Source: Candidatus Limnocylindrales bacterium (GTDB lineage Bacteria; Chloroflexota; Limnocylindria; Limnocylindrales; CSP1-4). Taken from it: a stretch of DNA of 64,000 nt. The stretch's first letter is position 1; each line of letters begins with the position of its first letter. A program made the translations under genes and the position numbers. The notes under the pieces were generated by a model, which did no database searches, was not told the DNA's origin, and saw only the letters and a program-made list of their open reading frames with translations. Shown in pieces: positions 2,700 to 60,299 of this stretch. The DNA is taken from assembly GCA_038328755.1 (NCBI GenBank), contig JBBQMH010000001.1, positions 18,422 to 82,421 on the forward strand, in the 5' to 3' direction.

Positions 2700-2871
2700 G
2701 CGTGCCTCCTCCTTGAGTTGGCCCTTCTTAATCAGTCATTCCCACCGAACGCAATGCCGTCCCGACGGAACGCTCGCAAGTGGGCGCCGCAACATTCCGC
2801 GGCATTGACGGGACCCTTCGTGCCTATCGAGTCCAATAGGCACGGTCTCCTATCCGTCGGTGAGGCACGCC

Positions 2872-3420
2872 TCACAGCTTCGCCACGCTCGAGAACTGGT
2901 CGTTGGCGGCGCCGAGGACGCCGACCGAGGCGGTGCCCCAGTCCCACTTTGTGCCCGTCCTGTTGGGTCCGCTCCACCAGGCTGGGTGGCCGCCATTGAG
3001 CGGGGTGAACGAGCTGATTTTGTTGTCCCAGCCGATGGCGGCCAGATCCGGCTCGGCCAGGTAGGCCTCGAAGCTCGGGCCCGCGAAGTTCGTATCGCGG
3101 TACCAGCGGACGTACGGGCTCAGGAGGGCGGTGGCGGTCGGGTCGAGGGTCGCCGCTTCGATCCCTCCAGCAGCCTGGACTTCTTCCGTGGCCCGCTGCT
3201 CGGCGGTCAGGAAGCAGCGGATGACCGGGTAGTCCCGATCGTGGCAGTAGAGATCGACGATCGCGCCCGGGTCGATCCGCTGGGCCCCGAGATAGACGAC
3301 CGGGGTCACGTCCCTGGCTGGGACGGCCGAGACCGAGGCGGGCAGCCCGCCGGCGGCGAAGACGGCCAGGAGTGTCCATCCGGCGACGAGTTGCGAGCGG
3401 AGTCTCTGTCGTCCAGCCAT
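2872..3420 (-). CDS. hypothetical secreted protein (182 aa)
   Basis: Signal peptide LVAGWTLLAVFAAGGLPASVSA; GGAGG RBS 8 nt upstream; preceded by conserved leader element. Confidence 0.6.
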   Translation of the reverse strand: MAGRQRLRSQLVAGWTLLAVFAAGGLPASVSAVPARDVTPVVYLGAQRIDPGAIVDLYCHDRDYPVIRCFLTAEQRATEEVQAAGGIEAATLDPTATALLSPYVRWYRDTNFAGPSFEAYLAEPDLAAIGWDNKISSFTPLNGGHPAWWSGPNRTGTKWDWGTASVGVLGAANDQFSSVAKL

Positions 3421-3440
3421 CGGCGTGCCTCCAGGGGTCG

Positions 3441-3600
3441 TGGTCTACGGCTCGGTTGACGCCCAACCGCGCAACCAGGGACGCACCACGAGGGTCGCGG
3501 CTGGTGGGTCGGATGGCGAGAGCGTGAATCACGTCAGGCCGCGGCGTGGGATCGCGCCGAGGGCCGGCCGTCCGGGGTCGCATACCCGCTCCCGCACAGA
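3441..3600. repeat. conserved ~160-nt non-coding element, copy A (candidate cis-regulatory RNA leader)
   Basis: ~80-85% identical with indels to 4958-5130; shared blocks ACGCCCAACCGCGCAA, GGCTGGTGGGTCGGATGGCGAG, AATCACGTCAGGCCGCGGCGTGG, CGCCGAGGGCCGGCC. Confidence 0.6.
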
Positions 3601-4120
3601 GGGGTCGACGATCCGGTCTGGCGCGACGCCCTCGACGCCGGGGGCGATCGAGGGCGTACCTCGAGGCCCTTACCGAACTCGACGCCCCTGGTCCGCTCGG
3701 GGACACGCCTCGGGACGCGACCAGTACGTTCGCGAACAACCGCGAGGGGATGCGCTACTGTCGCTCCTTGGCGCTCGGCCTCTTTTTGGCGCTCGGCCTC
3801 TTTGTCGGCTCGGGCGTCGTCGAGGCCGGTCGCGCGACGCTCATCGGCGGACGCCTCAAGCAGTCCGAGATGCGCTGGACGCCGTGCGATGGGCCGAGTC
3901 GATGATCCGGCCGCCGGTGCGCGGGGCAAGAGGGGGCCGGCGAGGACGGGACCCACGCGAACCAGGGAAGCACCAGGGCTTCAAGCGACGTCTTTGGGAC
4001 GCCGGGGCCGAAGCGAGGGCGGCGCCACGGTCCCCACGCCGCCCTCCGCTTGGCCAACGAGCCGCCAGCCGAGGACCTTGACCCCGGACCATCTCGGCGA
4101 TCCAAAACGCGGATCTTGGG

Positions 4121-4222
4121 TCAGCCAGAGACGCTCCTACCAAACAGGCTAAGAACCAAGACCAAGACCAGAAGGCCCAGCAGAACGATGGCGATCCTGG
4201 GCAACCACTCCGTGGCGGTCAT
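4121..4222 (-). CDS. small hydrophobic peptide (33 aa) MTATEWLPRIAIVLLGLLVLVLVLSLFGRSVSG
   Basis: Not in ORF track (too short); ATG 2 nt after stop of upstream gene, preceded by GGAGGAGG SD; single predicted TM helix. Confidence 0.35.
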   Translation of the reverse strand: MTATEWLPRIAIVLLGLLVLVLVLSLFGRSVSG

Positions 4223-4224
4223 GT

Positions 4225-4839
4225 TCAACCTCCTCCGCTTCCGGTGCCACGACCATCAGCGTGTGCTGTCATGTCAAGCCACGGCAGATTGTCCTGATTC
4301 GAGAGGGGGTTTGGTGGGCGATAGCTGAAACTGCCTTGCACGAACGACCGGTAGTATTCGAGGCCTTGTCCTCCCCCAGTAAAGTCCCCGACGAGCCCGT
4401 TGTACGACCACCAAGGATAGTTGAGTGTCGCAGTCACCTGTCGCCAAGGAGTATTCGTGATCCTCGTCCCGTCTCCACACCAATCGATTCGCTGCTTAAA
4501 CGTCCATAGAAGGACACCAATAGGGTTCCTCCCATCACGGCCCCACGTCCAAGTCCAACATGTCACGGCAACAGCGCCCAGGAGGCTAGAGGTCGGACCC
4601 GTGACCCGAGTGACTGGCGACTGCGTGGTCGTGACTGTCGCGAGACTGGTGTAATCCAGGACAGACCGTTGTTCGGCAGGGCTGAGTCGAGCAAATGCCG
4701 CGTTTTGATCGCTAGCTCGGGCAACGACGTCCGTCAGGCGTGCAGCGTCCCGCGTAGGATTCGCGGCCGCCACTGGCCCGACCACCCCAATGGTCATCAG
4801 AACGGACACGAGGAACGTGGCAACGATCTGAATGCGCAT
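4225..4839 (-). CDS. hypothetical secreted Trp-rich protein (204 aa)
   Basis: Signal peptide MRIQIVATFLVSVLMTIGVVGPVAAA; W-rich mature region (TCWTWTWG, NYPWWSY). Confidence 0.6.
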   Translation of the reverse strand: MRIQIVATFLVSVLMTIGVVGPVAAANPTRDAARLTDVVARASDQNAAFARLSPAEQRSVLDYTSLATVTTTQSPVTRVTGPTSSLLGAVAVTCWTWTWGRDGRNPIGVLLWTFKQRIDWCGDGTRITNTPWRQVTATLNYPWWSYNGLVGDFTGGGQGLEYYRSFVQGSFSYRPPNPLSNQDNLPWLDMTAHADGRGTGSGGG

Positions 4840-4957
4840 TTCTGTCCCCAGCTTTGTTCGTGTTGCTGTTGAGGTCTTGTCCTATACCAACCGATCTTCT
4901 CGACTTGGTCTGCACCTACTCCCACTGCCCGTTCATCCAGACATCGCGGTGGCCCCA

Positions 4958-5130
4958 GGTCGTGGTTTGCGGATCCGGGTACGCCCAACCGCGCAATGAG
5001 GGACGCACCACCAAGGGTGGCGGCTGGTGGGTCGGATGGCGAGGCCGGAAATCACGTCAGGCCGCGGCGTGGAATCACGCCGAGGGCCGGCCATCTCGGG
5101 ACGGGCATCGCTCTCCGCAGAGTGGGGCGG
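4958..5130. repeat. conserved ~160-nt non-coding element, copy B
   Basis: Paralogous to 3441-3600; lies between secreted-protein gene (minus) and histidine kinase gene (plus). Confidence 0.6.
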
Positions 5131-5181
5131 CGAGGCCACCAAGTATGATCACTGCGTGTTCGCATCCAGGGGACGGTCAGG

Positions 5182-6621
5182 GTGACTTCGGCGTCGCGGG
5201 TCGGTTCGATCGGCGGGGCGCGTTCCGCATCCACCGCGTTCGTCGTCGCCCTCGCCATCGACCTCGTTGCGCTCATGGCCCTGGGCTGGCTGGTCGTGGT
5301 CGGCACCCCGGCCATCGATGTCGGTTTCGCCCCTCAGCCTGACGATCGATGGCTCGTCACATCCGTCGCTCCGGGAGGCGTCGCCTGGAACAACGGGATC
5401 CGGCCCGGCATGGAGGTCGTCGGGGTCAGTCCTGGCGACGCGCTCCCGTCGGGCGAATGGACGTCCGTGCTCGTCACCGATGGGGCGGTCCGGATCACCA
5501 TCCAGCGCCACGACCTGCCGCCCGGTCCGGAGCTGTTGGTCGCCGGCATCGTCGCCCTCGGGCTGGCGATCCTTGCCTTCCGCCCCGTACCGTCCGTGGC
5601 CTGGTGGCTTGCCCTTGCGCCAGCGATCGTCACGTCGCTCACTGGCGCACTGATCGTGGATCCGCCGCTCAATCTGGCGTTCGAGCTTGGAGGGCCCCTC
5701 ATCGGCGCGCTCTACGTGGTGGCGGCAGCTCGCCCCGTGGCGCGGAACGCGCGGTGGATCGTTCTCGGGACCGGCGCCGCGTTCCTCCTTGTCTGGGGCG
5801 TGTCGTATGTCACCGCAGGAGAGGACTGGCGCATCCTTCGCGACCTGTCGGTTGCCGTCAGCCTCGCCCTGGCCGCGGTGGCGCTGGGAGTGACCGTCCG
5901 GTCGGCGTTCGCGCGAGCTCGGGCGCGGACGGGGACGGGGACGCCACTGTCCACGCTATCGCCCGTGGCCGCGCTGGGACTCGTCGTCGACGAACTCGTC
6001 CCCGGTCGAAGCAGAACGCGGGTGACCGCCATCGAGCGCGAGCGCGCCCGCCTGGCGACCGAGCTCCACGCCGACGTCCTGCCGGACCTGTCTGCCGTGA
6101 TCCGGTCAATCGAGGAAGGTGCCTCAGGTGAACAGGCAGCCGAGAGACTGCGCGGCATCGCTGCCGAACTGCGAGACCTGATGGCCGAACGGCGGCTGAG
6201 CGTCCTGGAACAGCTCGGGCTTGTTCCCGCTCTGGAATGGCTCGTCGAGCAGGTGGAGGGGCGGACAGGCGTCCGCGTCGAGCTCGACGTGGAAGGCGCC
6301 AGCGTCGATTGGGAAGCACGGCCGCCGCGCGACGTTGAGTTGACGGCCTACCGGGTCTGCCAGCAGGCACTCGACAACGCGCTGCTGCACGCCCGGCCGA
6401 CCAGCATTCGCGTGCGGCTCGATGTGGACGCGGGTCACGCTGAGCTCGAGGTCAGCGATAACGGCGTCGGCATCCGATCCGGAGACGAGGAGCGGGCGCT
6501 CCGGTCCGGCCACCTCGGCCTGGGCGACATGCGTCAACGGGCGGCCGCGATCGGGGCCGCTCTCCACATCGGCCCGCGGCAAGACGGGGGAACGATGGTG
6601 CTGCTGCGCTGGCCGGCATGA
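5182..6621 (+). CDS. sensor histidine kinase, NarL/HisKA_3 type, multi-TM with PDZ-like extracytoplasmic segment
   Basis: TM helices; ERERARLATELHADV H-box; C-terminal HATPase (LDNALLHARP, SDNGVGI, GLGLGDM). Confidence 0.8.
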   Translation: MTSASRVGSIGGARSASTAFVVALAIDLVALMALGWLVVVGTPAIDVGFAPQPDDRWLVTSVAPGGVAWNNGIRPGMEVVGVSPGDALPSGEWTSVLVTDGAVRITIQRHDLPPGPELLVAGIVALGLAILAFRPVPSVAWWLALAPAIVTSLTGALIVDPPLNLAFELGGPLIGALYVVAAARPVARNARWIVLGTGAAFLLVWGVSYVTAGEDWRILRDLSVAVSLALAAVALGVTVRSAFARARARTGTGTPLSTLSPVAALGLVVDELVPGRSRTRVTAIERERARLATELHADVLPDLSAVIRSIEEGASGEQAAERLRGIAAELRDLMAERRLSVLEQLGLVPALEWLVEQVEGRTGVRVELDVEGASVDWEARPPRDVELTAYRVCQQALDNALLHARPTSIRVRLDVDAGHAELEVSDNGVGIRSGDEERALRSGHLGLGDMRQRAAAIGAALHIGPRQDGGTMVLLRWPA

Positions 6622-7232
6622 TCCGCGTGCTCATCGCCGACGACCATCCGTCGACCGCCATGGGCCTCGGCCAGCTGCTCGGTCGCGAGCGCGACCTCGA
6701 TGTGGTCGGCCTGGCCGAGGACGTCGAGGGTGCCCTGACGCTCGCTCGTAGCCTGGCGCCGGATCTGGTCCTCTGCGACATTCAGCTCCAGGGCGAGGCC
6801 GGCGGCTTCGAGATCCTGCGACGACTCGAGCGCGAGAACCCGCCCCCGGTGCTCCTCTTCAGCTCGTTCGACTACCCGGCCTTCCAGCAACGGGCGCTCG
6901 AGCTTGGCGCCCGCGGGTATCTCCTGAAGACGAGCAGCGTCCGAGAGATCGTGGCCGCGATTCGCCATGTCGCGGGGGGCGGCTCGGCCTTCATGGCGAT
7001 GGCATCTCGGGGCAAGGCCACCGAGCCTCGGGCGCCATCCGAGCGGGAGCTCGCGCTCATTCGACTCGTCCGGTCGGGTTTCACCAACGACGAGGCGGGG
7101 GTCCGGCTCGGGATGGGCACTCGCGGCGTGGAGAGCTCGCTCCGACGGCTGTTCCAGCGCTACGGGACCTTGAGCAGGACGGAACTCGTGACCTACGCTG
7201 AAGGGCAGGGTTGGCTCGCACTCGATCCGTAA
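6618..7232 (+). CDS. response regulator, NarL/LuxR family
   Basis: REC domain (IRVLIADDHP...LCDIQL) plus C-terminal LuxR HTH; ATGA overlap with kinase. Confidence 0.9.
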   Translation: MIRVLIADDHPSTAMGLGQLLGRERDLDVVGLAEDVEGALTLARSLAPDLVLCDIQLQGEAGGFEILRRLERENPPPVLLFSSFDYPAFQQRALELGARGYLLKTSSVREIVAAIRHVAGGGSAFMAMASRGKATEPRAPSERELALIRLVRSGFTNDEAGVRLGMGTRGVESSLRRLFQRYGTLSRTELVTYAEGQGWLALDP

Positions 7233-7240
7233 TAGCGGGA
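7232..7240 (+). promoter_or_regulatory. ATAGCGGGA direct repeat 1 (candidate response-regulator site)
   Basis: Exact 9-mer, one of three within 280 nt. Confidence 0.35.
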
Positions 7241-7481
7241 TCGACGCGTTCGCGCGGGGCGATCCGGGACGCAGCGAAGAAGGCGCGCCCGCTCAGCCAG
7301 GTGTCTGGAACCGAGGCTGCCGCCGACCCCCGCGGCCATCGGTCCCGGCGGGTGGATTCAGCTCCCGCCTTGGTCATATCGCGGTTGATCGCGGCCAGTT
7401 GATCGCCGCATGAGAAACAAGATGGTAACGGTCAAGCTGAGCGTCTGGCGGCCGCCCACTATCCCCTTGCACGCTGACCGG

Positions 7482-7513
7482 ATAGCGGGATTCCCCGCGA
7501 CGTTATAGCGGGA
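7482..7513 (+). promoter_or_regulatory. ATAGCGGGA direct repeats 2 and 3, spaced 23 nt centre-to-centre
   Basis: gATAGCGGGAtt...tATAGCGGGAaa ~105 nt upstream of the secreted-protein gene. Confidence 0.4.
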
Positions 7514-7642
7514 AATCATCGCTCGACAGGCTGGTCGCCGGGGGTCAACCTCCCAGCGAGACAACGACGCGAGACGGCCGATGCGCCTTCCGGAGCGCCG
7601 GCTGTTTCAGCTGACCTCGTGGACGACTGGAGGATTGCGGGA

Positions 7643-8062
7643 ATGCACAGGAAATACACCGGTGTTGTGGCTGGATTGCTGCTTTCGATCCTCACCGTCG
7701 GAACGGCGCTTGCGGAGGGGTCCTGGGATTCCTACATCATCAACGCGCACCGCTCCTTCGACTCCCGGACCTGGACGGACCGGGACATAGATGCCAACGC
7801 CACGACAATCAGGTTCGACACCTGCCGGGACGAGAACACGACGAACGGCAGCGATGACTGGGCGAAGGTTTCGTTGCAGAGGATGCGCTTGTTCTTGCCG
7901 GCGGAGAATCGCGGGCAGAAGACCCTCTTCTGCTGGGTGAGTGCTACCGGCGACTGGGGCCGACAACCAGCATCGGACTACCAGTTCCAGCTCGATGACT
8001 ACAGCGGTGGCACGGACAGCTGGAACGTGTTCGACGTCGGTTTCCTCAGAGTATCGTACTGA
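7643..8062 (+). CDS. small secreted protein (139 aa), hypothetical
   Basis: GGAGG RBS; signal peptide MHRKYTGVVAGLLLSILTVGTALA; lower GC. Confidence 0.6.
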   Translation: MHRKYTGVVAGLLLSILTVGTALAEGSWDSYIINAHRSFDSRTWTDRDIDANATTIRFDTCRDENTTNGSDDWAKVSLQRMRLFLPAENRGQKTLFCWVSATGDWGRQPASDYQFQLDDYSGGTDSWNVFDVGFLRVSY

Positions 8063-8069
8063 TCAGGAC

Positions 8070-8810
8070 ATGCAGCTCGCATTCGACGACGTAACGTTCC
8101 GGTACCGACGAGCCTCGCCCCCGGTATTGGACGGCTTCACCTGGGCTGTCCCGTCGGGAAGGACAGTCCTGTTGGGTCCGAACGGAGCAGGCAAGACGAC
8201 CTTGCTCGCGCTTGGAGCCGACGTGCTTCAGCCAGAACGCGGCAGGATCTCGGCCGGTCCGCTGCACCCCGTCGGCCGGACGGAGCGCGCCTCGTACCGG
8301 CGGGCGGTCGGCTGGATGCCGCAGCAGATCCGCGCCGTCCCGGGCCTGACGGCACGAGAACAGGTCGCCTACGCGGCCTGGTTGAAAGGGGCTCCGCGCG
8401 GCCGGGCATGGGAGCTGGCTGTCGGGGCATAGGCGCGGGTCGACCTCGATGGGCTGAGCGATCGCTTGACCTCAGAGCTCTCCGGCGGACAGCTTCGCCG
8501 GGTGGGTCTCGCTCAGGTGCTTGTCCACGATGCCGAGGTCATCCTCCTCGACGAGCCAACCGTCGGGCTGGATCCCGCACAGCGCGCGACGTTCCGGCAG
8601 ATCCTCGCGGCGCTCCCGGGGGACCGCCCGGTCGTCGCCTCGACGCACCAGGTCGACGATCTCTCGGAGCTCTTCGACACGGTTGTGATCCTCGATCGCG
8701 GCCGGATCCGCCACCAGAGCTCGGTCGCCGTGTTTTTCGACCTCGCGCCGTCAGGGTCTCCGCGACCCGCCGAGGCCGCGTATGCCCAGGTCGTGTCCGG
8801 GTCCGATTGA
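8070..8810 (+). pseudogene. ABC transporter ATP-binding protein interrupted by in-frame TAG at 8430-8432
   Basis: Walker A LGPNGAGKTT before the stop; LSGGQ and Walker B ILLDEPT after it in the same frame (...ELAVGA*ARVDLDGLSDRLTSELSGGQ...). Confidence 0.7.
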
Positions 8811-10084
8811 TGCCGATCAGGTCGGTGCTCCGAGTGAGCGCGGGCTCGTGGCTGGCGCTCCCGATCATCCTGCTCGCAGCCCTGTTCTCGCTGGCGCATC
8901 AACCGGCGACGGCCGATCCCTACGCGATCGCACGCTCGGCGGCCGGCACCATCACGCTTGCCTTCGTGGCCCCGATCTGCGCCGCCCTCGGAGCATGGGA
9001 AGGAGCGCGGTTTCGTCGGGCGGCCTGGTGGGCCCTGCCGCACGTCCGATCGCGGGCCGCGATCGCGGCCTGGTCCACGGCACCGGTCATCCTGGCGGGA
9101 TCGATCGCGGTCGCGGTCGCGTCGATCGTCCAGCTCACGCGCGCCGGGTTGTTCGTCCCGGACGCCCGGCTGCTTGCGTTGACCGTGGCCGTGATCTCGG
9201 CGCACACGCTGCTGGGATTCGCAGCCGGCCTCTGGGTGCCGGTCGTCATCGCCGCGCCGGCGGCGCTCATCCTGTCGTTCCTGTGGATGGCGTTTCCGGC
9301 CGCGATGGATCCCCTCTGGCTGCGCCATCTCAACGGCAGCCTGTCAACCTGCTGCGGGCTCCAACAGGATCTCGCGCCCGCGGCAGTGATAGCGGCTTTC
9401 CTCGTTGCTGCCGGCATGGTCGCAGCGGCATTCCTGCTGGTCACACAGCAGGCATGGAGTTGGGTCCGGGGTGCGCTGTCAGTCGTGCCCCTCGCCATCG
9501 CCGTCGCCGCCGGCTCGGTGATCGCGAGCCCACTCGGACCCGACCCGGCGGTCGCCCGTGACGCGTCAGCCCTCGTCTGCGCGACCGATCGTTCTGGTGT
9601 GGAGGTCTGCGTCTGGCGTGAGCACGCGGGTCGGCTTGGCGAGGTGCTCGGAATCGCGGCAGACGCCGTGGCCGCCTGGGATGCGTCCGGGATCCCGACA
9701 CCGCGGCGGTTCACCGAACTGGAGCCCGCGAGCCGTAGCGAGCGCGCGTTCGGGTTCAGTCTCGAATCGACGAAAGCCGACATCGTGGGCTCGCTCGCCT
9801 ACAGCATCCTTCCGCCGTGGCCGTCATGTGCGAACGCGGGGCCGTACCCGTCGGCCCGTGTGCTCGACGAGCTCTACGCGTGGTTTGCCGCCGTCGGAGG
9901 CATGTCCGAGCGCGATCTTGTTCGGCGGTTCGACGTGGCAGCCCCGCCCGGGAGCCAGACTCCGCTCGCTGTCGTCCGCGCGCTCCGGTCCCGACCACCG
10001 GCGGTGCAGCGCCAGTGGGTGAACGGCAATCTCGAGGCGACGCGCAATTGTCTCGACACGCCAGTGGACGTGCCCGACGCTTGA
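8810..10084 (+). CDS. polytopic membrane protein, putative ABC-2-type permease partner (424 aa)
   Basis: ATG overlaps ATPase stop (TGATG); many hydrophobic helices. Confidence 0.55.
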   Translation: MPIRSVLRVSAGSWLALPIILLAALFSLAHQPATADPYAIARSAAGTITLAFVAPICAALGAWEGARFRRAAWWALPHVRSRAAIAAWSTAPVILAGSIAVAVASIVQLTRAGLFVPDARLLALTVAVISAHTLLGFAAGLWVPVVIAAPAALILSFLWMAFPAAMDPLWLRHLNGSLSTCCGLQQDLAPAAVIAAFLVAAGMVAAAFLLVTQQAWSWVRGALSVVPLAIAVAAGSVIASPLGPDPAVARDASALVCATDRSGVEVCVWREHAGRLGEVLGIAADAVAAWDASGIPTPRRFTELEPASRSERAFGFSLESTKADIVGSLAYSILPPWPSCANAGPYPSARVLDELYAWFAAVGGMSERDLVRRFDVAAPPGSQTPLAVVRALRSRPPAVQRQWVNGNLEATRNCLDTPVDVPDA

Positions 10085-10701
10085 ACTACTGGCTTCGCAC
10101 ACGTCGCGCAAAGGCGATTGTCGCCGTCTTCGCGTTCCTTGCCGCGGCGTTCCTTGTGGCCGGGGACGCGACCCTGGCGATGCCGGGGATTCTCTCCTTG
10201 TACGGTCTCGCTGTGCCGGTCGTTCTCCTGGCCCCGCTGGCGCTCTCGAGCGTGCTGGGCTGGGGCCTGATGTCTGGCGAGGAACAGCTCGAGCGAGTCA
10301 GCAGCCGGCCGATCATGAGCATGGATGCCGCGCTCGCGACCGGGACGGCCTTGCTCGCCTGCCTGCTCGCAGTCACGGCAGGGGCCGCAACCGGCTCGCC
10401 ATATGCGGCGGCAGCCGGCCGAAACGCGCTTGGCTACGTCGGACTGATGCTCGTCGGTCGTCGACTGCTGGGAGGCCGCGCCGGGACCCTGGTGCCGCCC
10501 ACGATCGCGGTCCTGATGGCCGTGTTCGGCGGTGATGCGTCGGGCCAGCCCCGCCGGTGGGTCTGGGTCCTGGCGCCCTCGGACGATCTCCTCGCTTGGG
10601 CAGCGGCAGTCATCTCCCTCGCACTTGGGGTTGTGGTGACGGTGGTGGCGCCCGGGTTACGCATTGACTGGGTGCGATCTGGAGGTCGCGCGCAGCGCTG
10701 A
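10081..10701 (+). CDS. membrane protein (206 aa), putative permease partner
   Basis: TTG start overlapping upstream stop (TTGA); ~6 TM helices. Confidence 0.5.
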   Translation: MNYWLRTRRAKAIVAVFAFLAAAFLVAGDATLAMPGILSLYGLAVPVVLLAPLALSSVLGWGLMSGEEQLERVSSRPIMSMDAALATGTALLACLLAVTAGAATGSPYAAAAGRNALGYVGLMLVGRRLLGGRAGTLVPPTIAVLMAVFGGDASGQPRRWVWVLAPSDDLLAWAAAVISLALGVVVTVVAPGLRIDWVRSGGRAQR

Positions 10702-11067
10702 CTGGTGGCAACGATCACCGTTGCGTGTGGCGGCGACATCAACCGCCGCTGGTGAGATCAGCAGTGGCGAGTTTGACGGGTTGAAGCGCGCCTTGGAGCG
10801 GTAGGCCATCCACGCGACGCGCCCGATCACGCCCAGGCGGGTCCCTCGTGTGGGCGTGGTTTCAGGTTGAAGGCCATCGAGGGGAGCGTCGAGCCCACAG
10901 TGAGGCCGAACACCGCGGATAATGAGCAGGGCCACTGGCTACCTGAACCGCTCGACAGAGCGTATCTGGACCTCGCACGAGGGGTGCTCGTCCCCCGACC
11001 CAGGCGCAATCTCCGGCCGCCGGGCCCCGCGGCCCCGCCCGTGCCTTCCCGCGTACACTCCCGAGCC

Positions 11068-12879
11068 GTGACCATCCCTCAGAGCCGCCTGCGCAACTTC
11101 TCGATCATTGCCCATATCGATCATGGAAAGTCCACGCTTGCCGATCGGTTGCTCGAGGCAACGCACGCGATCGATCCCCGGCAGATGACGAGCCAGGTCC
11201 TCGACTCGATGGACCTCGAGCGCGAGAAGGGGATCACGATCAAGGCCCGCGCCGTGCGGCTCGAGTACACCGCGGCCGACGGTCTGCACTACGGGCTCAA
11301 CCTGATCGATACGCCCGGCCATGTTGACTTCAGCTATGAGGTCAGTCGCAGCCTGCAGGCGTGCGAGGGCGCGATCCTCGTCGTCGATGCCGCCCAGGGA
11401 ATCGAGGCCCAGACCCTCGCCAACGTCCACCTGGCCCTCAAGGAGGGCCTCACGATCATTCCGGTCCTCAACAAGATCGACCTGCCGTCGGCCCAGCCAG
11501 ATGTCGTGATGGACGAGCTCGAGAACATCCTGGCCATCCCACGCGAGGAGGTGATCCTCGCCTCGGCGAAAGAGGGCATCGGCATCACCGAGATCCTCGA
11601 AGCGATCGTCGCGCGCATCCCCGCCCCGAAGGGCGATCCCGCCCTCCCGCTCAAGGCGCTCGTCTTCGACTCGCACTACGACCAGTACAAGGGCGTGATC
11701 TGCTACGTCCGCCTCGCCCAGGGCACGCTCCACTCCCATGACCGCGTCCGGCTCATGCAGTCCGGTGCCGAGGCCGACCTCCTCGAACTCGGCTTCTTCC
11801 GGCCCGCGCTGGTGCCCGTTCCGATGATCCACGCCGGTGACGTCGGCTATCTCGCGACGGGACTCAAGAACGTTCGCGAGGCCCAGGTCGGTGACACGAT
11901 CACGAGTGCCGCCGATGGTGCCGCTGAGCCGCTGCCCGGCTACCAGGAGGCCAAGAGCCTCGTATTTGCCGGCATCTATCCGGTCAGCGGCGAGGACTAC
12001 CCGCTCCTCCGCGAAGCCATCGAGAAGCTGCACCTCAACGATGCGTCGTTCACCTACGAGCCCGAGAGCTCGGTTGCGCTGGGCTTCGGGTTCCGATGCG
12101 GATTCCTGGGGCTCCTCCACATGGAGATCGTCCAGGAGCGCCTGGAACGCGAGTTCAACCTCGATCTCATCGCCTCGGCGCCGTCGGTCGAGTACCAGGT
12201 CGTGATGACCCACGGCCGCGGGACGATCACCATCGACAATCCGGCCTTCCTGCCGCCCGTGTCCGAGATCGAGGAGATCCTGGAGCCGTGGGTCCTGCTG
12301 TCCGTAGTGACCCCGTCGAGCTACATCGGCCCGTTGATGGAGCTGTCCACGAACCGGCGTGGCTCGTTCATCGGGCTCGAGTACATCGACCCGGTCCGGG
12401 TGCTCATGAAGTTCGAGCTGCCGCTGGCCGAACTCATCGTCGACTACTTCGACCAGCTGAAGACCCGCACCGCCGGATACGCGTCGATGGATTACGAGGA
12501 GATCGGGTATCGGGCGGCCCACCTCGTCAAGCTCGATGTCCTCGTCGCCGGCGAGCCCGTCGACGCGCTGTCGATGATCGTCCATCGCGACAAGTCGGTC
12601 TCGCTCGGTCGCATCCTGGCCGAGCGGCTGAAGCAGCTGATCCCACGCCAGATGTTCGAGATCCCGATCCAGGCGGCGATCGGCTCGAACGTCGTTGCGC
12701 GCGAATCCGTCCGTGCCATGCGCAAGAACGTCCTCGCCAAGTGCTACGGTGGCGACATCAGCCGCAAGCGCAAGCTGCTCGAGAAACAGAAGGAGGGCAA
12801 GCGCCGTATGAAGCGCGTGGGCTCCGTCGAGATCCCCCAGGAAGCCTTCCTCGCCATGCTCCGGACAGACGAGAACTAG
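11068..12879 (+). CDS. lepA: elongation factor 4 (LepA)
   Basis: [33 protein letters not shown] and LepA C-terminal domain; GTG at 11068 gives ~603 aa, ORF-track start 10867 likely too early. Confidence 0.95.
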
Positions 12880-57937: not shown

Positions 57938-58227
57938 GGGGGGCGCTTATCGGGCACTCACTCGACTACGGGCGCCCGGTGGTACGCTTCGATCGACCGC
58001 AATTTGCGGTTCGCCGAACAGTCGCGAAGCCGGTGTGATTCCGGCACAGTCCCGCTACGGTGATCGTCGCTCAGGCGACGTAAGTCCGGTCGCCGACGCT
58101 CGGTGGATGCACGACCTTCGAGAGAAAGGGTGGCTCCACACATGATCCCGACCGACTGACCGGCGGCGCGTCCCCACGACCCGCGAACCCTGCGTTCGCC
58201 CACCCCCCCGGTCGGAGACCCGCTCCC

Positions 58228-59217
58228 ATGTCTGGCTTTACCTTCCCACGCGCCGTCTTCTCAGGACTGGCCCTCACCCTGGCGACAGCCGTCCTCCTCG
58301 CCGCCTGTGGTGGCGCATCCGCAACACCGAAAGCGACACCCACGCCCATCGCAACCGTCGCTCCAACCGCGACCCTGACGCCGACGCTGGCCCCGGCATT
58401 CCCGATGACGGTGATCGATGACGAAGGCACGACGGTCACGATCCCTGCCAGGCCCGCGGCGATCGTGTCCCTGACCCCGGCCGCGACCGAGACGCTGTTC
58501 GCGATCGGCGCGAGCTCCCAGGTGGTCGCCAAGGTCGAAGACATCACGCCCTACCCACCAGAGGCAGACCAGCTGCCCGTCGTCGCCACCTACAAGGGCG
58601 TCGATATCGAGAAGATCGTGACCCTGAACGCCGACCTGGTGATCGCCGGAGGCCTCGGGTTCACGCCCCCGGCCGCCGTCGCGCAGCTCCGCAGCCTGGG
58701 CATCCCCGTCCTCGTCCTGTATGCGACCTCGGTGGACGGCGCGCTGGCCGGCATCACAGGCATCGGGCGCGCCACCGGCAACGAGGCGGCGGCCACTGCG
58801 CTCAGCCAGAGCATGCGGGCCGAGATCGATCGCCTCGCGGGATTGACGAGCGGACTGTCGAGGCCAAAGACGTTCTACGAGATCGATGCGACCTCGGATA
58901 TCTATACCGTGCCGGCCGGATCCCTCTACGACGAGCTGCTGACCCTCGCCGGCGCGGACCCGATCACGACGGACTCGAGTTATCAGATCTCGCTGGAGAC
59001 CCTGATCACCGCGAATCCCGAGGTGATCCTGCTCGGTGATGGCGGCTACACGACCCCGGACGACGTGGCGGCACGCCCGAACTGGGCGGGTATCAAGGCC
59101 GTGGCCGATGGCGCGATCTACCCGGTTGATGACACGCTGATCACCCGGCCCGGTCCGCGTCTCGTCGATGGGCTTCGGGCCCTCATCACGGTCCTCCATC
59201 CGGAGGTCCAGCCCTAG
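58228..59217 (+). CDS. ABC transporter periplasmic substrate-binding lipoprotein (cobalamin/iron-siderophore type)
   Basis: Lipobox LLAACGG; BtuF/FecB-like fold pattern. Confidence 0.85.
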   Translation: MSGFTFPRAVFSGLALTLATAVLLAACGGASATPKATPTPIATVAPTATLTPTLAPAFPMTVIDDEGTTVTIPARPAAIVSLTPAATETLFAIGASSQVVAKVEDITPYPPEADQLPVVATYKGVDIEKIVTLNADLVIAGGLGFTPPAAVAQLRSLGIPVLVLYATSVDGALAGITGIGRATGNEAAATALSQSMRAEIDRLAGLTSGLSRPKTFYEIDATSDIYTVPAGSLYDELLTLAGADPITTDSSYQISLETLITANPEVILLGDGGYTTPDDVAARPNWAGIKAVADGAIYPVDDTLITRPGPRLVDGLRALITVLHPEVQP

Positions 59218-59219
59218 TC

Positions 59220-60299
59220 ATGCCCGCCCGCGCCGGTGCCCTTCTCGGGCGTCCGCAACCGATCCTCCGGACGGTGATCGGCCGGCGGCCACTCGTGGTG
59301 GCGGTGATCGGGATCGTCCTGCTCAGCGTCATCGCGGTGGCGGGCATTGCCGCCGGTACCGTGGCGATCGCGCCCGGCGATACGGTCGCCATCCTGGCCC
59401 ATCGGCTTCTCGGACTGGACCTGACTCGGACCTGGACAGCGGCCGCGGAGACGATCGTTCTTGACCTGCGCCTGCCTCGCGTGCTGACTGCTGCCGTCGT
59501 TGGGGCCGGGCTGGCAGTCGCCGGCGCCGCGTTCCAGGGCCTGCTGCGCAACCCGCTGGCTGACCCGTACGTGCTCGGAACAGCGTCCGGTGCAGCCCTT
59601 GGGGCGTCTCTCGCGGTGATCATCCCGGTCCGAGCCTTGTTCCTCCAGTTCGGGCTGCTCCACGCCCTCGCCTTTCTCGGCGCGCTCGGCGCGGTCTTCG
59701 TCGTCTATCGACTGTCGCGGCTGGGTTCACGGGCACCGATGACGAGCCTGCTGCTGACGGGCTATGCGGTGAGCTCGCTGCTGGCAGCCGGGCTGGCGAT
59801 GGCGATGTACCTGTCCGGCGCGGGTCTACGCCAGATCTTCGCCTACCTCCTCGGAGGGTTCGAGGCGTCGTCGTGGGGACGCTTCGCCGTCGCGGCGCCG
59901 CTCATCATCGCGGCGAGCGTGGTGATCTTCCTGCGCGCGCGGTCGCTCAACGGCATGTTGCTCGGCGAGGAGGCCGCCGCCCACCTGGGCGTCGATGTCC
60001 GGCGCGAACGCGCGATCCTGCTGGCCGTGGCCTCGCTGGCCACCGCGGCCTCGGTGGCGATATCCGGCCTCATCGGCTTCGTCGGCCTCGTGGCGCCCCA
60101 TGTCGTCCGGCTCATCGTCGGCCCGAATGCTCGGCTCGTCCTGCCGCTGGCGGCGCTTCTCGGAGCGAGCCTGATGGTCGGCGCCGACCTGGTTGCGCGA
60201 CTGCTCGGCGAAATTCCGGTCGGAGTCGTGACCGCGGTGGTCGGCGCTCCGTTCTTCCTGGCCCTCCTGCGGCGAGCCCAGTCCGGGTACGAGCTGTGA
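59220..60299 (+). CDS. FecCD-family ABC permease (BtuC-like)
   Basis: FecCD motifs incl. LLGEEAAAHLGV...; 9-10 TM. Confidence 0.9.
   Translation: MPARAGALLGRPQPILRTVIGRRPLVVAVIGIVLLSVIAVAGIAAGTVAIAPGDTVAILAHRLLGLDLTRTWTAAAETIVLDLRLPRVLTAAVVGAGLAVAGAAFQGLLRNPLADPYVLGTASGAALGASLAVIIPVRALFLQFGLLHALAFLGALGAVFVVYRLSRLGSRAPMTSLLLTGYAVSSLLAAGLAMAMYLSGAGLRQIFAYLLGGFEASSWGRFAVAAPLIIAASVVIFLRARSLNGMLLGEEAAAHLGVDVRRERAILLAVASLATAASVAISGLIGFVGLVAPHVVRLIVGPNARLVLPLAALLGASLMVGADLVARLLGEIPVGVVTAVVGAPFFLALLRRAQSGYEL

Follow-up and report, generated by a model that had tools for sequence, protein, structure and literature searches.

A NarL-type two-component system beside a four-gene cassette for a putative ABC exporter, with a probable recent nonsense mutation in its ATPase gene in a Limnocylindrales bacterium

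We examined a stretch of 64,000 nt from contig JBBQMH010000001.1 of a Candidatus Limnocylindrales bacterium (GenBank assembly GCA_038328755.1), called the window below, with positions counted from its first nucleotide. We focused on a module of six genes, in which the sensor histidine kinase and response regulator of a NarL-type two-component system (TCS) are followed by genes for a small secreted protein, an ATP-binding cassette (ABC) ATPase, and two membrane proteins. Our favoured reading of the module as a whole, to which we assign a probability of about 0.7, is that of a NarL-type TCS next to a four-gene cassette for an exporter of the ABC-2/type V class, the ATPase of which was lost by a recent nonsense mutation. 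The TAG codon that interrupts the ATPase gene is most likely an ordinary mutation of this kind, which inactivated the transporter in this strain and made the gene a very recent pseudogene.

Interruption of the ATPase gene

An initial annotation, made from the sequence alone, had located an in-frame TAG at 8430-8432, between the Walker A motif and the LSGGQ signature, with the reading frame kept on both sides, and our analysis bore this out. Translation of 8070-8810 gave one frame of 246 codons, interrupted only by a TAG at codon 121, and the match to the Pfam family ABC_tran was split by the TAG into two parts in the same frame, covering profile positions 5-82 (8070-8429) and 92-136 (8433-8807). 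The ATPase motifs were intact on both sides of the stop, i.e., Walker A (GPNGAGKT), Q-loop (MPQQ), LSGGQ, Walker B (ILLDEP), and H-loop (STHQ). The TAG truncates the protein after residue 120, ahead of the signature motif, Walker B, and the H-loop.

For comparison, we used related loci from three Streptomyces genomes (L002-L004), from Chloroflexota-like metagenome contigs (L007, L008, L010, and L012/L013), and from the nearest named relative, a metagenome-assembled genome of Candidatus Limnocylindrales (L005), as well as the loci L009 and L011. A search for relatives of the ATPase at E<=1e-30 returned 1571 proteins, the best 120 of which were listed and the closest 30 aligned (62-88% identical to the query). 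Comparison of orthologous loci, which the initial annotation had proposed as a check, indicated that the ATPase is intact elsewhere: all 30 aligned orthologues were uninterrupted proteins of 245-250 aa, and the column of the TAG was occupied by Leu in nearly all of them, with Val or another residue in a few. The orthologous codon was TTG in L008, CTG in L007 and L012, and CTC in L005 and L010. The closest relative of the ATPase was found in L007 (88% amino acid identity), and the codons flanking the site were otherwise conserved in L007 and L008. Since L008 has TTG at this site, a single T>A transversion of a TTG (Leu) codon would suffice to account for the TAG.

The ratio of nonsynonymous to synonymous substitutions (dN/dS, Nei-Gojobori) between the window and L007 was 0.12 for the ATPase gene overall, 0.11 for its N-terminal half and 0.13 for its C-terminal half, which is no higher than the value of 0.19 obtained between the intact copies of L007 and L008. 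The comparison of the window with L007 revealed no indels in the ATPase gene, and the GC content at third codon positions (GC3) was about 0.8 in both halves. Because dN/dS was low in both halves and indels were lacking, the mutation appears to be recent; the gene was by this measure under purifying selection until very recently, and the stop would be young relative to the dS of about 0.5. Thus, the in-frame stop lies within a conserved domain, the homologous coding sequence continues in frame beyond it, the orthologues are uninterrupted, and a sense codon is one mutational step away. A recent nonsense mutation had been among the explanations offered initially, and it is this one that the intact orthologues, the TTG codon of L008, the low dN/dS, and the lack of indels support.

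A sequencing error had been offered as well. In this alternative, the organism has an intact ATPase gene, and the TAG arose as an error of sequencing or consensus building or belongs to a minority allele. The Logan assembly of run SRR19962012 was 100% identical to the window over 2810-11231 (about 8.4 kb), the TAG included, and the 84.6-kb NCBI contig yielded an identical N-terminal ATPase fragment of 120 aa, hence the same TAG. Two different assemblies therefore share the base within an identical surrounding sequence, and substitution errors are rare in short-read consensus, which also counts against an artefact. On the other hand, both assemblies may derive from the same reads, the exact sequence is on record from one strain and sample only, with no further sample on record that carries it, and the ATPase gene has no other sign of decay. 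True decay is nevertheless seen at this locus in related contigs, namely a truncated kinase gene in L007 and remnants of the secreted-protein gene in L005 and L011, and since genes of the neighbourhood have decayed there, loss-of-function variants are plausible at this locus. We regard an artefact as unlikely, because the two assemblies agree, and leave it a small share of the probability.

The third option, amber read-through, found no support. In a broader form of this alternative, a functional ATPase is still made, either by amber suppression or read-through, or by non-covalent assembly of fragment 1-120 with a C-terminal piece re-initiated at TTG 8466 or GTG 8502. The preserved frame, the intact catalytic motifs on both sides, and the low dN/dS of both halves would agree with it, and gene callers did report a C-terminal open reading frame (ORF) of 114 aa (Logan) or 102 aa (NCBI). 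However, low dN/dS is equally expected for a very recent mutation, and the aligned orthologues are single proteins of 245-250 aa with Leu at the site in nearly all cases. The break lies inside the helical subdomain, so a re-initiated fragment would miss a part of it, and inspection by eye revealed no convincing Shine-Dalgarno sequence before 8466 or 8502. Moreover, LepA, DnaK, and Mfd, encoded in the same window, terminate normally at TAG; LepA matched model positions 2-595 of 595 and ended two residues before its TAG. The 64-kb window contained no tRNA gene and thus no gene for a suppressor tRNA. Taken together, continued production of a functional ATPase seems to us very improbable.

Genome-wide reassignment of TAG was rejected on the same grounds, TAG being the normal stop of LepA, DnaK, and Mfd. 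We also screened the window for other genes split by a stop and found none after inspection of the candidates, a result that rests on a looser same-frame screen, as a stricter screen based on flank composition missed the ATPase site itself. The looser screen pointed to three other pairs of abutting coding-like segments in the same frame, and these were ordinary gene boundaries (GrpE/DnaK, PrmA/membrane protein, and Mfd/MFS).

Organization of the module

The features of the module are summarized in Table 1. The gene positions and the start/stop overlaps reported initially were confirmed by the ORF map, the raw sequence, and Pfam matches, and the same holds for the description of the cassette as a secreted small protein, an ATPase, and two polytopic membrane proteins with coupled starts and stops. 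According to the ORF map and the raw sequence, all six genes, from the kinase to membrane subunit 2, are co-directional. The kinase stop and the regulator start overlap in ATGA (6618-6621), the ATPase stop and the start of the DUF7224 gene in TGATG (8808-8812), and the stop of the DUF7224 gene and the start of membrane subunit 2 in TTGA (10081-10084). For membrane subunit 2, the Logan gene call used an alternative TTG start at 10048. The secreted-protein gene is separated from the ATPase gene by a spacer of 7 nt.

Table 1. Features of the module and of its immediate surroundings in the window
Feature	Position	Strand	Description
Sensor histidine kinase	5182..6621	+	479 aa; Pfam HATPase_c E 1e-10
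LuxR/NarL-type response regulator	6618..7232	+	204 aa; Response_reg E 8e-22, GerE E 2e-5
Regulator-cassette intergenic region	7232..7642	+	410 nt; holds ATAGCGGGA repeats
Small secreted protein	7643..8062	+	139 aa; predicted signal peptide; no Pfam family
ABC ATPase gene	8070..8810	+	246 codons; TAG at codon 121
In-frame TAG	8430..8432	+	replaces a conserved Leu in the helical subdomain, between Q-loop and LSGGQ
Membrane subunit 1 (DUF7224 protein)	8810..10084	+	424 aa; PF23866 at residues 266-414
Membrane subunit 2	10081..10701	+	206 aa; TTG start; conserved 3' of the DUF7224 gene
Secreted I36-like (beta/gamma-crystallin-like) protein	2875..3420	-	PF03995, 21.7 bits (cut-off 21.1); divergent from the TCS

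Because of the gap of 410 nt between the regulator and the secreted-protein gene, the six genes probably do not form one tightly coupled operon. The start/stop overlaps of the cassette were also found in L008, and since the stop and start codons overlap and this arrangement is kept there, it fits the ATPase and the two membrane subunits forming a stoichiometric complex. A scan of 4800-10950 for promoters and terminators returned no sigma-70-like promoter and one terminator-like site, which is below the number expected by chance. A search of 3300-8100 against Rfam at E<=1 found nothing in or near the module. With PADLOC we found only generic P-loop similarity and no defence system. Downstream, the module is flanked by the LepA gene, and upstream by genes of secreted proteins to which no function is assigned. 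In the whole window, the sole Rfam match at the gathering threshold was a cobalamin riboswitch (RF00174) at 57980-58115 on the forward strand, which lies upstream of the ORFs at 58228-60299 and scored 34.3 bits (gathering score 31.5).

Class of the ATPase and features of the membrane subunits

To the ATPase sequence with Leu restored, the closest solved nucleotide-binding domains (NBDs) were those of ABCA7, A1, A4, and A3 (E 1e-44 to 1e-36); the next class, ABCB, followed at E 1e-27, i.e., by more than nine orders of magnitude behind ABCA. The best NCBIfam models were PQQ_ABC_ATP and DrrA, both under their curated cut-offs, and the orthologues carry the JGI name "ABC-2 type transport system ATP-binding protein". 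In the Q-loop, WMPQQ, the Gln is conserved among the orthologues. By sequence, the ATPase is thus closest to the DrrA/ABCA class, the partners of ABC-2/type V membrane domains.

Membrane subunit 1 matched DUF7224 (PF23866) with E 2e-28 and 99.6 bits against a cut-off of 27, and the same family was matched in 15/15 of its aligned relatives. The AlphaFold (AF2) model of this protein, with a predicted local distance difference test score (pLDDT) of 87.8, has seven transmembrane (TM) helices and a C-terminal alpha/beta domain. Cys residues at positions 181/182, 257, 267, and 414 are invariant and C340 is nearly so. Because of the positive-inside charges and the invariant Cys residues, the Cys-rich DUF7224 domain and the loop between TM5 and TM6, which contains the CC pair, are modelled as extracytoplasmic. 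Membrane subunit 2 has four strong hydrophobic segments by hydropathy, and from reading its sequence we estimate that it probably has about six TM segments in total; its gene lies directly 3' of the DUF7224 gene in L002-L004 and L007-L013.

Homology searches of the membrane proteins, which the initial annotation had suggested in view of a possible ABC-2 or FtsX-like relationship, gave no match to either kind of family and revealed DUF7224 in subunit 1. No hit to ABC2_membrane, FtsX, or related Pfam families was obtained at E<=10 with 15 and 7 members of the two subunit families, hhalign found no relationship between membrane subunits 1 and 2, and subunit 2 had no Pfam or PDB match. Profile searches of PDB sequences with the DUF7224 protein, the secreted protein, and membrane subunit 2 returned nothing meaningful, and no mention of DUF7224 was found in the literature searched.

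In a Foldseek search of the PDB with the model of membrane subunit 1, the top hits were NosY (the best single hit), ABCG2, ABCG25, TarG, and Wzm, with E 0.47-5 and TM-scores of 0.2-0.4. The top 17 or so hits and most of the top 50 were type V/ABC-2 membrane domains, and none was significant. We take this as a consistent hint, not a proof, that the modelled fold is type V/ABC-2-like. For the two membrane proteins, which these searches do not prove unrelated to ABC permeases, the class of the ATPase and the weak fold matches point to ABC-2/type V, a relationship that is not demonstrated by sequence.

Secreted protein

The secreted protein has a hydrophobic N-terminal segment at residues 6-24 by hydropathy and a predicted signal peptide ending ..ALA|EG. 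Its family comprised 218 representative relatives or clusters at E<=1e-3, nearly all of about 100-200 aa and typically 130-145 aa, with no match in Pfam or the PDB. Conserved positions are A-E-G, R42, W44, C61, and C97, the two Cys residues being invariant. The protein is predicted to be all-beta; its AF2 model (pLDDT 51) was too poor for a fold search.

The gene had been described initially as low in GC. Its total GC is indeed lower (0.598), and the deficit resides at the first codon position (GC1 0.50), whereas GC3 (0.81) is like that of the neighbouring genes. Since the deficit is at codon position 1 and GC3 is normal, the lower GC is an effect of amino acid composition. A foreign origin of the gene was considered and rejected on the basis of its normal GC3.

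Two-component system and candidate operator

The initial assignment of the TCS to the NarL type held, as the kinase combines a HisKA_3-like H-box with HATPase_c, and the regulator Response_reg with GerE. On the basis of hydropathy and Pfam, the kinase consists of TM1, an extracytoplasmic loop of about 70 aa, about five more TM segments, the H-box, and HATPase_c; its weak Pfam matches include PDZ_6 in the first loop (E 0.07) and HisKA_3 (E 0.1). The kinase of L008 has the same architecture, with matches to HisKA_3 at E 4e-4 and to PDZ_6 at E 7e-4. NCBIfam matches were all below cut-off; for the kinase (residues 280-478, covering its DHp and CA domains) they were MctS, NarQ, NarX, UhpB, and LiaS, and for the regulator the best were MadR, MctR, and NarL. 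A kinase of the HisKA_3 class and a GerE-type regulator are thus encoded beside transporter genes.

The association of the cassette with regulators varied among the related loci. In L008, the TCS lies upstream of the cassette, with three additional genes in between, and its kinase and regulator are 31% and 39% identical to those of the window, compared with 67-85% for the cassette proteins. A divergent HisKA_3/GerE pair adjoins the cassette in L011, and a PAS-GerE one-component regulator lies by it in L012/L013. L007 retains only the N-terminal part of the kinase (about 120 aa; L007 47-634) and has no regulator, and in the Streptomyces loci, L009, and L010 no such regulator was found within 6 kb. 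GerE-type regulators therefore adjoin the cassette in four contexts (the window, L008, L011, and L012/L013), and are a frequent, not an obligatory neighbour.

The region between the regulator and the cassette contains three exact copies of the 9-mer ATAGCGGGA (7232-7240, 7482-7490, and 7505-7513), two of them 23 nt apart, and one copy with one mismatch (7634-7642). All exact copies in the 64-kb window fall in this region. We propose the repeats as a candidate operator/promoter region, i.e., a putative binding site of the regulator for the cassette; the motif was not found in L007 or L008. The frequent presence of a GerE-type regulator beside the cassette favours, without proving, inducible control of the cassette; the repeats, like the adjacency in four contexts, hint at control by the adjacent regulator.

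Distribution, decay, and mobility of the cassette

The complete four-gene cassette (secreted protein, ATPase, DUF7224 protein, and membrane subunit 2) was found in L002-L004, L007, L008, L010, L012, and L013, the Streptomyces copies (L002-L004) being about 30% identical to that of the window. L009 is without the secreted-protein gene. In L011 (4974-5153) and L005 (5083-5157), the secreted protein is reduced to a C-terminal remnant; in L005, the ATPase comes next, and the contig breaks off early in the DUF7224 gene. Given the truncated kinase of L007 and the remnants in L011 and L005, this suggests that the members of the clade lose different parts piecemeal and that the system is dispensable and often lost.

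The Streptomyces cassettes have a GC3 of 0.73-0.80 compared with above 0.9 in their flanks, and L002 has transposase-like ORFs alongside. In L010, the cassette lies between a Replic_Relax gene and a gene for a tyrosine integrase (L010 3500-4345 and 8945-9859). On account of this low GC3, the transposase-like neighbours in L002, and the flanks in L010, the cassette appears to be mobile.

Several further observations concern the region upstream of the kinase. Homologues of the I36-like protein, itself a borderline match, are encoded beside the TCS in L008 (264-767, reverse strand) and between the TCS and the cassette in L011 (3960-4478, forward strand). As it is conserved next to the TCS in three related loci, the I36-like secreted protein may be a part of the same functional neighbourhood. 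We also found a direct repeat of about 145 nt at 3436-3580 and 4958-5103, with 81-88% identity between its copies, a core of 24 nt that occurs exactly twice in the window, and no Rfam match. The I36-like gene and the kinase gene each have a copy just upstream, so that the copies bracket about 1.4 kb; it looks as if a divergent promoter region had been duplicated by an insertion. Inside the bracketed segment, at 4225-4839 on the reverse strand, is the gene for a secreted protein of 204 aa with no Pfam or NCBIfam match and a GC3 of 0.61 versus about 0.82 in its neighbours, which was possibly acquired recently.

Proposed function

Our proposal builds on direct results: the genes present, the stop codon and its recent origin, the uninterrupted orthologues, the recurrence of a conserved cassette, and the class of the ATPase. 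The cassette would encode a small, disulfide-bonded protein secreted by the Sec route, together with an ABC exporter of three components that belongs to the ABC-2/type V class, presumably assembled from an ATPase dimer and two different membrane subunits, one with an extracytoplasmic DUF7224 domain. By analogy to LnrJK-LnrLMN and LanFEG/CprABC, the kinase may sense an envelope-active compound or envelope damage, upon which the LuxR-type regulator would induce the cassette. The transporter would then clear the putative compound from the membrane or the cell surface, with the secreted protein possibly acting as an extracellular accessory or binder. The change of a TTG Leu codon to TAG, which would truncate the ATPase after residue 120, is expected to leave the transporter non-functional in this strain.

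Four points weigh against this proposal. The TAG is known from an assembly consensus, for which an error or a minority allele has the low probability discussed above. The TCS is an inconstant partner: the Streptomyces loci, L009, and L010 lack it within 6 kb, and that of L008 is diverged. For the membrane proteins, neither sequence nor fold searches gave a significant match to ABC-2 permeases (Foldseek E>=0.47). Finally, the substrate and the inducer are hypothetical, and the model of the secreted protein is poor.

Alternatively, the cassette may not serve the efflux of drugs or peptides but be a mechanotransmission or assembly ABC system, in which cytoplasmic ATP hydrolysis drives the work of the DUF7224 domain on the secreted protein or on an envelope substrate, the TCS being a mere neighbour. 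Such a system would be analogous to NosDFY-NosL or to FtsEX with its partners. An extracytoplasmic Cys-rich domain is fused to a membrane subunit, the gene of a secreted partner lies directly upstream in most loci, and the cassette often occurs without a TCS, all of which would be expected of such a machine; the best single Foldseek hit, NosY of NosDFY, points in the same direction. However, the fold hits are not significant, and L009, L011, and L005 keep intact transporter genes with the secreted protein absent or cut short. The recurrence of a GerE-type regulator in four contexts also fits an inducible stress or resistance module. We therefore consider a mechanotransmission system possible but doubtful. 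In a broader and similarly tentative version, the four proteins would be an undescribed ABC machine of Chloroflexota and Actinomycetota, in which the DUF7224 domain works with the secreted protein in mechanotransmission or assembly, which is mobile between the phyla and has repeatedly come under GerE-type regulators, and for which the TAG allele is a natural knockout.

In the favoured reading, that of an inducible exporter with a lost ATPase, the stop codon amounts to a common kind of loss of function at the level of a strain, for which no special mechanism has to be invoked. The analysis defines a conserved, uncharacterised four-gene cassette that spans two phyla, sometimes in apparently mobile settings, and often lies beside LuxR-type regulators. 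It places DUF7224 and the secreted-protein family in a context that can be tested, such as that of an inducible envelope-defence transporter, though its wider value is modest. The strain with the TAG could be used as a naturally occurring null allele in comparisons.

Comparison with known systems

The initial annotation had likened the module to the BceRS-AB or LanRK-FEG types of peptide-antibiotic modules. The first likeness was not supported, and the second applies to architecture only.

BceRS-BceAB resembles the module in that a TCS adjoins an ABC transporter with an extracellular domain. BceB is a single FtsX-type permease of 10 TM helices with a domain of 200-250 aa between TM7 and TM8, and BceS is an intramembrane-sensing kinase with two TM helices and a loop of about 25 aa (PMC5786555). 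Here, by contrast, there are two separate membrane proteins with no FtsX hit at E<=10, the first of them modelled with seven TM helices and a C-terminal domain, and the kinase has about six TM segments with a loop of about 70 aa between TM1 and TM2. BceR is of the OmpR type, and the regulator described here has a GerE/LuxR output domain. As the permease, the kinase, and the regulator all differ, membership in the BceRS-BceAB group was rejected.

The LanFEG/CprABC transporters are encoded by one NBD gene and two transmembrane domain (TMD) genes, often with a TCS and an extracellular accessory protein (PMC5786555). One NBD gene and two different TMD genes, likely expressed at a fixed ratio, were also found in the cassette, and LanI or the lipoprotein adjacent to CprABC could parallel the secreted small protein, which is however without a lipobox Cys. 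Their TMDs have six TM helices each and no large extracellular domain, whereas the subunits described here have seven TM helices plus a domain, and about six TM segments, respectively, and no sequence match to ABC2_membrane or LanE/G. The TCSs of the LanFEG/CprABC systems are typically of the OmpR type, and LanF has an E-loop (Glu) where the ATPase of the cassette has the Gln of the Q-loop (MPQQ). No lantibiotic genes were seen among the flanking genes, for which no dedicated search was made.

The closest architectural analogue, by analogy and not by homology, seems to be LnrJK-LnrLMN (YfiJKLMN) of Bacillus subtilis, a TCS-induced ABC transporter that confers linearmycin resistance (PMC7472640). 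As in that system, a TCS lies directly upstream of a co-directional three-gene ABC transporter, and the ATPase described here is of the class that partners ABC-2 domains. LnrJK is of the NarL type, and LnrLMN comprises one ATPase and two membrane subunits. The module differs in that its membrane subunits have no detectable sequence relation to ABC2_membrane families, and in having the extra secreted-protein gene, a seventh TM helix with the extracytoplasmic DUF7224 domain, the spacer of 410 nt, and a PDZ-like loop in the kinase; moreover, the link to the TCS is not conserved across the cassette family.

With respect to ABC-2/type V exporters in general (NosDFY(L), ABCA, and ABCG), the ATPase is closest to the NBDs of ABCA, and the conserved Cys pair in the outer TM5-TM6 loop recalls the disulfide-bearing EL3 of ABCG2. 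The cassette differs from these exporters in that its two membrane subunits are unlike, with no homology detected between them, and in the seventh helix and the C-terminal domain. The module is thus an uncharacterised variant of the familiar theme of a regulator plus an ABC-2-type exporter, made unusual by the secreted small protein and the DUF7224 domain.

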